From Candidatus Thioglobus autotrophicus (GTDB lineage Bacteria; Pseudomonadota; Gammaproteobacteria; PS1; Pseudothioglobaceae), in NCBI GenBank assembly GCA_022448455.1, contig JAKUUR010000002.1:10241-74240 (forward strand): 64,000 bases of DNA. The letters run 5' to 3'. Under the pieces are notes generated by a model. The model did no database searches, was not told the DNA's origin, and was given only the letters and a program-made list of their open reading frames with translations. This document shows positions 41,009 through 43,233 of the stretch, piece by piece; the stretch's first letter is position 1; every line of letters starts with the position of its first letter. Position numbers and translations under genes: made by a program.

Positions 41009-41743
41009 ATGGATGGTGTGCTTAGAAGGCTTGCGAATAACTTGCTTGAAAGCTGCAAAGACTTACTTCCAATTGTTTTAGTAGTCGCTTTTTTTCAAAT
41101 CATAGTACTTAAGCAAGCCATTCCTGAAATAGGCTCCATACTTTTAGGAACCTTGTCAATTCTTATTGGTTTGACTTTTTTTGTTTCTGGTCTTAGGTTG
41201 GGACTTTTCCCTATAGGAGAAAACCTTGCCCATTCTTTTGTAAACAAAGGTTCATTGTTTTGGTTACTATTGTTCGCTTTTGCACTCGGCTTTGGATCAT
41301 CCATAGCAGAACCTGCACTCATGGCTGTATCACAAGAAGCTGCAATTGTTGCTAGTATCGGTGGCATTATTGAAAACAATGAATTGGCTATCAATAAATA
41401 TTCACTTCAACTAAGGTTGACCGTTGCGCTTGCTGTTGGTTTCTCAGTCATGCTCGGTGTTGTAAGAATCTTAAAGGGCTGGCCCTTACACTGGTTGATT
41501 ATCCCAGGGTATTTTCTAGTGATGGCTATTACATTTGTCTCTCCTGACTGGATTGTTGGTGTTGCTTATGACTCTGGTGGAGTGACAACATCAACGGTTA
41601 CAGTGCCTTTGGTAACCGCTTTAGGTATTGGATTAGCGAGTAGCATTCGAGGTAGAAATCCGCTTACTGACGGATTTGGAATGATTGCAATCTGCGCACT
41701 CTCACCGATTATTGCAGTTCTAATTTTTGGGATAGTTTTATGA
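41009..41743 (+). CDS. DUF1538 family membrane protein (paralog 1)
   Basis: LFPIGE, AEPAL, AYDSGGVTTSTVTVPLVTALGIGLA, DGFGMIA motifs. Confidence 0.88.
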   Translation: MDGVLRRLANNLLESCKDLLPIVLVVAFFQIIVLKQAIPEIGSILLGTLSILIGLTFFVSGLRLGLFPIGENLAHSFVNKGSLFWLLLFAFALGFGSSIAEPALMAVSQEAAIVASIGGIIENNELAINKYSLQLRLTVALAVGFSVMLGVVRILKGWPLHWLIIPGYFLVMAITFVSPDWIVGVAYDSGGVTTSTVTVPLVTALGIGLASSIRGRNPLTDGFGMIAICALSPIIAVLIFGIVL

Positions 41744-42471
41744 TTATTCTTCAACCTTTCATTTCTATGTTTTGGGATATAGCTCCTATCATTGGAATGA
41801 TATTAATTTTTCAGCTATTTATTATCAAAGAAAAAATACCAAATCTAACTCAAACTTTATTTGGCATCTTTATGGTTTGGATAGGACTAACTTTATTTAT
41901 TGTCGGGCTAGAAAAAGCACTATTTCCAATAGGAAAAATGATGGCCATTCAATTAACTTCGCCAGATTTTCTTGGTAAAACCCAACTGAACTGGAATGAC
42001 TACTATTGGGTATATTTATTTGCAGCAAGCATGGGCTTCTCAGCAACCATTGCTGAGCCCTCTCTTTTGGCTATATCAATTAAAGCTAATGAGGTTTCAG
42101 GCAACTCAATCCGAGTTTGGCCTTTGAGAATTACAGTTGCCCTTGGTGTGGCGATTGGTATCGCACTTGGGAGTTATCGAATTGTTGTCGGTCTACCTCT
42201 TCATTACTTTATCATTGTTGGCTATGGGATAGTCATCGTACAAACTTTTTTCGCTCCGAAGCAAATTATCGCACTAGCTTATGACAGCGGCGGTGTCACA
42301 ACTTCAAGTGTTACTGTGCCTTTGGTAGCTGCTTTGGGACTTGGCCTAGCAAGCACAATAGAAGGTAGAAATCCACTCATTGACGGATTTGGGCTGATTG
42401 CCTTTGCAAGCCTATTTCCTATCATGGGAGTATTAGCTTATGCTCAAATTAAACATTTAATTAACAAATAA
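41740..42471 (+). CDS. DUF1538 family membrane protein (paralog 2)
   Basis: LFPIG, AEPSL, AYDSGGVTTSSVTVPLVAALGLGLA, DGFGLIAFASLFP motifs. Confidence 0.88.
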   Translation: MIILQPFISMFWDIAPIIGMILIFQLFIIKEKIPNLTQTLFGIFMVWIGLTLFIVGLEKALFPIGKMMAIQLTSPDFLGKTQLNWNDYYWVYLFAASMGFSATIAEPSLLAISIKANEVSGNSIRVWPLRITVALGVAIGIALGSYRIVVGLPLHYFIIVGYGIVIVQTFFAPKQIIALAYDSGGVTTSSVTVPLVAALGLGLASTIEGRNPLIDGFGLIAFASLFPIMGVLAYAQIKHLINK

Positions 42472-42481
42472 GGAGGATGTA

Positions 42482-42832
42482 ATGCACTTTAAATTAATAA
42501 TCGCTTTTGTTGATAGCGCTAAAACCGATAAAATTTTGTCTGCGGCACGCGAACATGGAGCTACAGGTTCAACTGTTATTTCTCAGGCAAGAGGTGAAGG
42601 TGTTCATGACAAGAAAACTTTTTTAGGATTGCATATTGAAACACAAAGAGATGTACTCTTTCTTTTAGTGGAGCAACATAATGCTCTAAATATTCTTGAA
42701 ACTGTTAACGAGGTAGGAGCCTTCGACAAAGAGTCACATGAAGGTATTGCCTTTCAAATTGATGTTGAAGATGCAGTTGGTGTTATGCATCAAATTGAAA
42801 TACTAAGTAAAAACATAGAGGAGGAAATATGA
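42482..42832 (+). CDS. PII-like signal transduction protein (non-canonical)
   Basis: KLIIAFV, GATGSTV..ARGEG, GIAFQIDVEDAVG; strong AGGAGG RBS upstream. Confidence 0.85.
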   Translation: MHFKLIIAFVDSAKTDKILSAAREHGATGSTVISQARGEGVHDKKTFLGLHIETQRDVLFLLVEQHNALNILETVNEVGAFDKESHEGIAFQIDVEDAVGVMHQIEILSKNIEEEI

Positions 42833-43233
42833 AAAATGAATTACTAGTAAAAGATGTAATGTGGAAGGATGTTGATATTGTAGATCGTAATCTGAGTGTT
42901 CAGGATGGCTTAGATACTATGCAGTACAAAAAAACAAAAATGCTAATAGTTGATAAGGCTCACGAAAACGATGAGTATGGTGTAGTTTTAATTGCCGATA
43001 TTGCAGCAAAGGTGATTGCTAAAAATAGATCTCTAGATCGAGTTAATGTTTATGAAATAATGAATAAACCTGCCATTTCGGTTCACTCGACAATGTATAT
43101 TCGTTACTGTGCTAGGCTGCTGACTCGTATGAATATATCACGTTGTCCAGTCATTGATGAAGGCAAATTGGTTGGAGTCGTTAGTCTTACAAGTATAGTA
43201 TTTAGGAATAATGAACTCAGAATGGAGAAATAA
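42829..43233 (+). CDS. Stand-alone tandem CBS-domain protein
   Basis: VKDVM...YGVV...DI and V.EIMNKP...PV..EGKLVGVVSLT CBS pair. Confidence 0.88.
   Translation: MKNELLVKDVMWKDVDIVDRNLSVQDGLDTMQYKKTKMLIVDKAHENDEYGVVLIADIAAKVIAKNRSLDRVNVYEIMNKPAISVHSTMYIRYCARLLTRMNISRCPVIDEGKLVGVVSLTSIVFRNNELRMEK

Follow-up and report, generated by a model that had tools for sequence, protein, structure and literature searches.

A DUF1538 membrane pair accompanied by PII-like and CBS proteins: a candidate UmpAB-type cation/proton antiporter module in Candidatus Thioglobus

As signal processors, PII proteins rank among the most widespread, and few of their direct transporter targets are understood, namely AmtB, SbtA and some ABC systems. 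GlnK and SbtB, both of PII type, use their T-loop to plug a neighbouring transporter. As for membrane proteins of the DUF1538 family, the described system is UmpAB of Halomonas zhaodongensis, a two-component Na+(Li+,K+)/H+ antiporter published in 2017, which was cloned by complementation of Escherichia coli KNabc and required both genes (PMC5484666). UmpA and UmpB were found to co-immunoprecipitate as a heterodimer that, alone in E. coli, performed pH-dependent Na+(Li+,K+)/H+ antiport in everted vesicles; seven transmembrane segments were predicted for each subunit, their relative orientation was not discussed, and the cloned Halomonas fragment stopped after umpB, the paper being silent on PII and CBS (PMC5484666). 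Homologues of UmpAB have also been described in several saltwater lineages of cable bacteria, where they were proposed to aid in adaptation to higher salinity. Here we analyse a window of 64,000 nucleotides (contig JAKUUR010000002.1, positions 10,241 to 74,240) of Candidatus Thioglobus autotrophicus, a marine gammaproteobacterium of the SUP05/Candidatus Thioglobus type whose assembly amounts to 1.7 Mb and is 95% complete. At positions 41009-43233 of the window, four tightly packed open reading frames of the + strand, whose coordinates were confirmed by an open-reading-frame check, encode two DUF1538 membrane proteins (A and B), a divergent PII-like protein and a stand-alone CBS-pair protein. 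Our reading, with a probability of about 0.6, is that the operon encodes a UmpAB-type monovalent-cation/proton antiporter whose activity is controlled by a PII-like protein of its own together with a CBS sensor of AMP type.

The membrane subunits A (41009-41743, + strand, 244 residues) and B (41740-42471, + strand, 243 residues) match the DUF1538 model of Pfam (PF07556) over its full length with 222.4 and 224 bits, respectively, for a cut-off of 22.6, and are 45% identical to each other over 235 residues (E = 4e-63), which identifies them as true paralogues. When compared with the NCBIfam models, A scored 340.7 bits to UmpA (NF041627) and 180.7 to UmpB, whereas B scored 310.4 bits to UmpB (NF041628) and 207.8 to UmpA. 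A UmpAB-type function is suggested for the pair because A scores best to UmpA, B to UmpB, and antiport has been published for UmpAB itself. As in the Halomonas system, we find adjacent DUF1538 paralogues of about 250 residues, the UmpA type followed by the UmpB type, which overlap (by 4 bp, at an ATGA) and keep the same conserved motifs. In contrast to UmpAB as published, the scores stay below the cut-offs of the models, PII and CBS genes lie alongside, and a charge bias indicates opposite orientations of the two subunits. The first-pass annotation had correctly recognised two tandem paralogues with a common motif, followed by PII-like and CBS genes that overlap or nearly abut; its description of the carrier as uncharacterised and of its solute as unknown has to be amended in view of the UmpA and UmpB models and of the antiport activity published in 2017.

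Two motifs stand out in the sequences of both subunits. The first one, AEP (in A, 41306-41314, + strand, with E101 as its acidic residue), has a Glu and a Pro that are invariant across the A and B families, and lies where two short helices of a discontinuous transmembrane segment 3 (TM3) are separated by a break. The second motif, AYDSGGVTTS...GRNPL.DGFG, covers residues 186-227 of A (41564-41689, + strand) and comprises the break of a discontinuous TM6, the following loop and the start of TM7; its counterpart in B, located by paralogue alignment and conservation, covers residues 180-221 (42277-42402, + strand). Residues D188, T194-T198, R216 and D221 (A numbering) are kept in at least 95% of both families, and E101/E106, D188/D182, R136/R130, R153/R147, R216/R210 and D221/D215 (A/B) are invariant in both paralogues, which makes these acidic and arginine residues plausible ion and proton ligands. 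An internal repeat within a single DUF1538 domain was also considered and discarded, as none was detectable (hhalign of residues 18-116 against 117-235, probability 0.3).

A search with the sequence of A found no match in the PDB. A structural model was obtained with AlphaFold2 for a natural A-B fusion (P0121), using an alignment built from natural fusions only, and turned out to be confident (predicted local distance difference test, pLDDT, 84.3; predicted TM-score, pTM, 0.84). Each half of the model shows nine helices, among which short helices meet at the AEP and at the DSGG-VTTST breaks, as expected from the earlier suggestion that the common motif breaks a helix. A Foldseek search of this model against the PDB (to April 2026) gave nothing at E <= 0.001, with best TM-scores of 0.11-0.23, and no resemblance to any solved NhaA, LeuT, MFS, TrkH/KtrB, GltPh or other transporter fold. 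As modelled, the DUF1538 fold is therefore without a solved relative. The transporter-like fold on which the first-pass annotation made its reading depend is not supported by a match to a known carrier, although the model is plainly that of a polytopic membrane protein. In the same search, the idea that the four glycine-rich breaks of A and B mimic the four P-loops of TrkH, KtrB or KdpA was rejected, as no such match was obtained.

The orientation of the subunits was approached by counting Lys and Arg per loop in 49 A-type and 46 B-type proteins. A-type proteins carry 7.9 of these residues in the N-terminus and in the loops after TM2 and at 145 and 200, vs 1.9 elsewhere (49 of 49 proteins), and B-type proteins show the reversed pattern, with 2.9 vs 9.6 for the same sets of loops (46 of 46). 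According to the positive-inside rule, A is predicted to be N-in/C-out and B to be N-out/C-in, each with seven predicted crossings, and, the bias being opposite in every pair examined, A and B would form an antiparallel heterodimer. In the fused form, the two halves are joined by a 26-residue linker free of Lys and Arg. Moreover, since the charge bias alternates across the motif, the GGVTT stretch, initially compared with re-entrant loops, more likely represents the point at which a discontinuous membrane-crossing helix is broken. A heterodimer had also been expected from the sequence, in agreement with the co-immunoprecipitation of UmpA and UmpB (PMC5484666). Pairs of the EmrE family (EbrAB, YdgEF) and Fluc/CrcB pairs offer a similar picture of adjacent paralogues with opposite positive-inside bias and an expected head-to-tail assembly, and the fused single-chain DUF1538 versions of other lineages are a further likeness. 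The DUF1538 subunits are, however, much larger, with about seven crossings and two broken helices each, and are unrelated to those pairs in sequence and fold.

The third gene (42482-42832, + strand, 116 residues) starts 10 bp after B, in a gap that contains a GGAGG ribosome-binding site. Its product matches PF00543 with 40.2 bits (Pfam cut-off 25), and its model (pLDDT 81.5) displays the double beta-alpha-beta core of PII proteins, strand-helix-strand twice around a loop at residues 37-55. This T-loop is full-length but poorly defined in the model, where a C-terminal helix takes the place of the RxRTGE tail. Foldseek returned GlnK1, TTHA0516, CPII, SbtB and many GlnB structures (probability 1.0, TM-score of about 0.6, 15-26% identity). 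With the sequence GEGVHDKKTFLGLHIETQ, the T-loop contains no Tyr and hence lacks the Tyr51 (or Ser49) modification site of GlnB/GlnK, in line with the initial remark that the protein is non-canonical and lacks the Tyr of YRGAEY and the C-terminal RxRTGE. In a profile alignment to GlnB/GlnK, Arg38/Gln39 are replaced by Glu39/Gly40, Lys90 by Ile89, and the RxR of Arg101/Arg103 by Gly100-Val-Met-His103, whereas Arg56, at the position of Lys58, is the only residue kept of the canonical ATP/ADP/2-oxoglutarate site. With Tyr51, Arg38/Gln39, Lys90 and Arg101/Arg103 replaced, this site is not preserved. The T-loop itself, KTF(L/F)GL, is on the other hand the best-conserved stretch of the PII-like proteins of both clades, even at 27-33% overall identity, a pattern that would be expected of a docking loop. 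By context the protein is not of the SbtB type, its partner genes being DUF1538 and not SbtA in 80 of 80 loci. The annotation "P-II family nitrogen regulator" is misleading for this gene, which represents an extra paralogue, since the genome has a canonical GlnB/GlnK-type PII elsewhere (C1:134435-134758; L135:1501-1845, + strand), beside a ferrochelatase-like gene and with the T-loop ELYRGSEF, the B-loop GDGKIF and the tail RIRTGE.

The last gene (42829-43233, + strand, 134 residues) overlaps the PII-like gene by 4 bp at another ATGA, an arrangement of translational coupling. It encodes two tandem CBS stretches (PF00571, 63.4 bits), and its nearest PDB relative is CBS-CP12 of Microcystis aeruginosa (5nmu; E = 6e-20, residues 7-129), which binds AMP and not ADP, ATP or cAMP (PMC6142219). 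Like CBS-CP12 and plant CBSX, which sense AMP, this is a small CBS protein with similarity over its full length, and the likeness to the AMP-specific CBS-CP12 suggests binding of an adenosine nucleotide. Unlike CBS-CP12, it lies in a transporter operon, not in a thioredoxin or Calvin-cycle context, and it has no CP12 tail, so that no hexamer is expected. A CbpB model gave only a weak match (23 bits vs 125). PII-like and CBS proteins are classic receptors of cyclic di-AMP (c-di-AMP), which was considered as a ligand for both regulators and rejected for this organism, because no diadenylate cyclase (PF02457) was found in the 95%-complete genome by a search that, as a control, matched 11 of 14 reference genomes.

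The conservation of the four-gene linkage, whose absence would have refuted the first-pass annotation, was followed with a PII-like profile in one genome per species and proved very strong. At least 548 stretches encode a relative, and among the 80 loci that were kept, the PII gene comes directly after the DUF1538 genes in all 80 and the order A-B-PII-CBS is found in 79. Hosts are found among the Gamma- and Betaproteobacteria, Desulfuromonadales, Pirellulaceae, Myxococcota and Eiseniibacteriota. When 400 gammaproteobacterial genomes were sampled evenly, a strong UmpA-type match occurred in 106, a PII-like match in 106 and both of them in 104; in 96 of these 104 the A and PII-like genes are adjacent, with a median of 809 bp from the end of A to the start of PII, that is, one B gene, and most of the remaining eight are interrupted by, or close to, the end of a contig. 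Among the 30 best loci of this sample, a CBS gene comes after PII in every one whose flank extends that far. An independent annotation of Neptuniibacter shows the series as well, as DUF1538(233)-DUF1538(262)-P-II(116)-CBS(134). In 69 of 79 loci the PII gene runs into the CBS gene, with an overlap of 4 bp in 61 and of 1 bp in 8. Natural A-B fusions of about 500 residues occur in Thiohalorhabdus, Sulfurovum, Sulfurimonas and Persephonella, and the six gammaproteobacterial fusion loci examined, Thiohalorhabdus among them, all keep a PII-like gene (27-33% identical to ours) and a CBS gene. On a Paraclostridium plasmid, a fused DUF1538 gene overlaps a 222-residue gene annotated as "P-II family nitrogen regulator" (WP_021431977/WP_021431978); the search of a plasmid collection returned distant DUF1538 genes only. 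Altogether, almost all lineages examined have a PII partner for their DUF1538 genes, whereas the CBS partner marks the UmpAB clade. Since no paper on a DUF1538-PII-CBS module was found in a literature search, this widespread pairing is apparently undescribed.

Variants of the arrangement were also observed. The sole locus of the 80 without CBS belongs to a 1.5-Mb gammaproteobacterial metagenome-assembled genome (OZ244962.1; L012:6340-6900), which keeps A, B and PII; a tblastn search past its PII gene gave no CBS remnant, and from this loss CBS appears dispensable in at least one reduced genome. A distant DUF1538 subfamily of Gammaproteobacteria (L128, L130, L131 and L132) is fused, of about 590 residues, carries the motif AWDCGAVTTGP and is followed by two PII-like genes (123-150 and about 112 residues) in place of PII and CBS. 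These other-clade modules resemble ours, as does the one of Paraclostridium, in that the carrier is immediately followed by one or more dedicated PII-like proteins, and differ from it in the second soluble partner, which is another PII-like domain there and a CBS pair in the UmpAB clade. Further cases are a duplicated B gene (A-B-B'-PII-CBS; L120, genome G292), a 1.4-kb insertion between B and PII (L119, G200), one weak PII-like gene flanked by two fused A-B genes (L122, G110), and an A-type gene that stands by itself on one contig, with B and PII on another (L109, G148).

The mechanism that we propose from these data is as follows. A and B would insert in opposite orientations and pair as an antiparallel heterodimer, in which four discontinuous helices, broken at AEP and DSGGVTTS, would gather the invariant Glu and Asp residues as a likely ion or proton site. 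The PII-like and CBS proteins would be cytoplasmic regulators devoted to the carrier and produced with it at a constant ratio. The PII-like trimer would probably dock through its conserved T-loop KTF[L/F]GL, and the CBS dimer would probably report AMP, i.e., the energy charge. Acting together, the two would turn Na+(K+)/H+ exchange on or off. In this proposal we infer the substrate in this organism, the ligands of PII and CBS, their attachment to the carrier and the direction of regulation. The first-pass reading of the operon as a heterodimeric, energy-state-gated transporter is supported in part. As with GlnK-AmtB and SbtB-SbtA, a PII-fold protein with a full-length and highly conserved T-loop lies beside a transporter and co-occurs with it. 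Differences with those systems are that the partner is a DUF1538 heterodimer of an unrelated and unsolved fold, and not the trimeric Amt or SbtA; that the PII-like protein, without Tyr51, Lys90, RxR and Gln39, has no canonical ATP/ADP/2-oxoglutarate site in contrast to GlnK and SbtB; that the operon includes a second regulator of CBS type; and that the cargo is probably Na+/H+ and not a nutrient. We tentatively raise the idea that this could be a third paradigm of PII-controlled transport, in which a carrier of new fold, made of two oppositely oriented subunits, would be gated jointly by a site-less PII acting as a T-loop plug or adaptor and by an AMP-sensing CBS dimer supplying the signal, a proposal that is at present speculative. 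Such a module would couple Na+/H+ homeostasis to the energy charge in the gammaproteobacterial genomes of our sample that carry it and in several other phyla.

Several points weigh against a regulated UmpAB-type antiporter. Neither subunit reaches the equivalog cut-off of its model (A, 340.7 vs 490; B, 310.4 vs 500), and with scores so far below, the same function as UmpAB is not assured; none of the 400 sampled gammaproteobacterial genomes reaches either cut-off, from which the models appear to be narrow. The sole functional data are KNabc complementation and vesicle dequenching from one laboratory, and the KNabc assay is one by which several unrelated families have been credited with Na+/H+ antiport. 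The presence of PII and CBS at the Halomonas umpAB locus was not confirmed, the homologue searches having returned no Halomonas. No fold relative exists to back a mechanism, and a trimeric PII and a dimeric CBS protein do not obviously match a pseudo-twofold carrier. In addition, the PII-like protein, without Lys90, Arg101/103 and Arg38/Gln39, may bind no adenine nucleotide, and the ribose/phosphate motif of the CBS protein, inspected by eye in the translation, is half kept in each site. Lastly, the PII-gated transporters known to us carry nutrients (NH4+, HCO3-), not Na+.

The main rival to a cation/proton antiporter is a carrier of the same architecture with other cargo, such as K+, bicarbonate, another anion or a small nutrient, the Na+/H+ exchange of UmpAB being then a side activity of over-expression. 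It holds this place on account of the scores below the cut-offs, the permissive KNabc assay, the arginines in the membrane and the many autotrophic hosts, and we regard it as possible, although not the likelier outcome. The invariant arginines of the predicted membrane helices (R136/R130 and R153/R147) could bind an anion; GlnK, SbtB and probably CPII gate the uptake of NH4+ or inorganic carbon, and the PII-like protein matched the structures of CPII and SbtB, among others. Many hosts of the module are chemolithoautotrophs, including Thioglobus, bivalve symbionts, Chromatiaceae, Nitrosomonas, Gallionellaceae, Sulfurovum and Persephonella, but it is also found in heterotrophs such as Vibrio, Shewanella, Neptuniibacter, Woeseiaceae, Pirellulaceae and Myxococcota. 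In this regard, the flanks are housekeeping genes (nadC, FKBP, DUF1631 and ampD/ampE, or pabC/mltG/tmk) and are for this reason uninformative on the cargo: no conserved flanking gene hints at it, and carboxysome, RuBisCO or nitrogen genes never appear in the flanks examined, which does not favour a carbon or nitrogen substrate. The inventory of antiporters can be read both ways. A single NhaD (NF038006, 576 bits; C21:15511-16605; L134:1324-2700, - strand) would already provide Na+/H+ exchange, whereas NhaA, NhaB, NhaC, CPA-type (PF00999) and Mrp (MnhG) antiporters gave no match in the 95%-complete genome, and a 1.7-Mb marine genome with one NhaD that still keeps the module fits a cation/proton antiporter. 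Cation/proton antiport is, moreover, the sole experimental result for the family.

Another possibility is that the PII-like and CBS proteins are merely co-expressed with the DUF1538 pair and have their targets elsewhere in the cytoplasm, or in one another, without gating it. The closest solved relative of the CBS protein regulates indeed a soluble enzyme, PRK (PMC6142219), the L012 lineage has lost CBS and kept A, B and PII, and UmpAB was active alone in E. coli. However, the near one-to-one co-occurrence over 400 genomes, the gene order maintained in split, fused and rearranged forms, the PII-like partners that a second DUF1538 subfamily has of its own, and a T-loop that is conserved above the rest of the protein in the manner of a dedicated partner make this improbable. 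The notion that the DUF1538 pair is no transporter and acts in the membrane as the sensor or the anchor of a signalling complex of PII and CBS, which could draw on the lack of structural relatives among known transporters and on the fact that transport is known for homologues outside this clade, is very improbable given the antiport published for those homologues and an architecture, with an inverted pair, two discontinuous helices per subunit and invariant acidic residues, that is typical of ion-coupled carriers.

In the window, the operon is preceded by a divergent pabC-like gene and followed by a convergent pepA-like gene, and the four genes bounded in this way form a self-contained unit. 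A scan for promoters and terminators gave counts not above those of shuffled sequence; two terminator-like hairpins at 42039-42057 (inside B) and 42669-42688 (inside the PII gene) are probably due to chance, as their number equals the shuffle expectation. In many Gammaproteobacteria other than Thioglobus, nadC and an FKBP isomerase gene lie divergently upstream of the module, and ampD (Amidase_2) and ampE come immediately after it on the same strand, with ampD starting in some loci at the stop codon of CBS (L032:6761-7324 and L074:7456-8346; upstream, L071:103-942).

What was known are the UmpAB antiporter family and PII-regulated transport; what is new is the near-obligatory A-B-PII-CBS linkage, together with the predicted opposite orientation of A and B and a modelled fold without solved relatives. 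Dedicated PII-like and CBS proteins go together with a family of cation/proton antiporters in 104 of the 400 gammaproteobacterial genomes sampled evenly, including those of the abundant ocean SUP05 group and of animal symbionts, and the module is present in other phyla as well. An antiparallel heterodimer with natural fused descendants would be a clean case of the origin of an inverted-repeat transporter, and a carrier without a solved structural relative is a good target for cryo-electron microscopy. Should PII and CBS gate the carrier, the published work on UmpAB would have covered the unregulated core only, and the module would provide a new route for matching sodium and pH homeostasis to the energy state of the cell.

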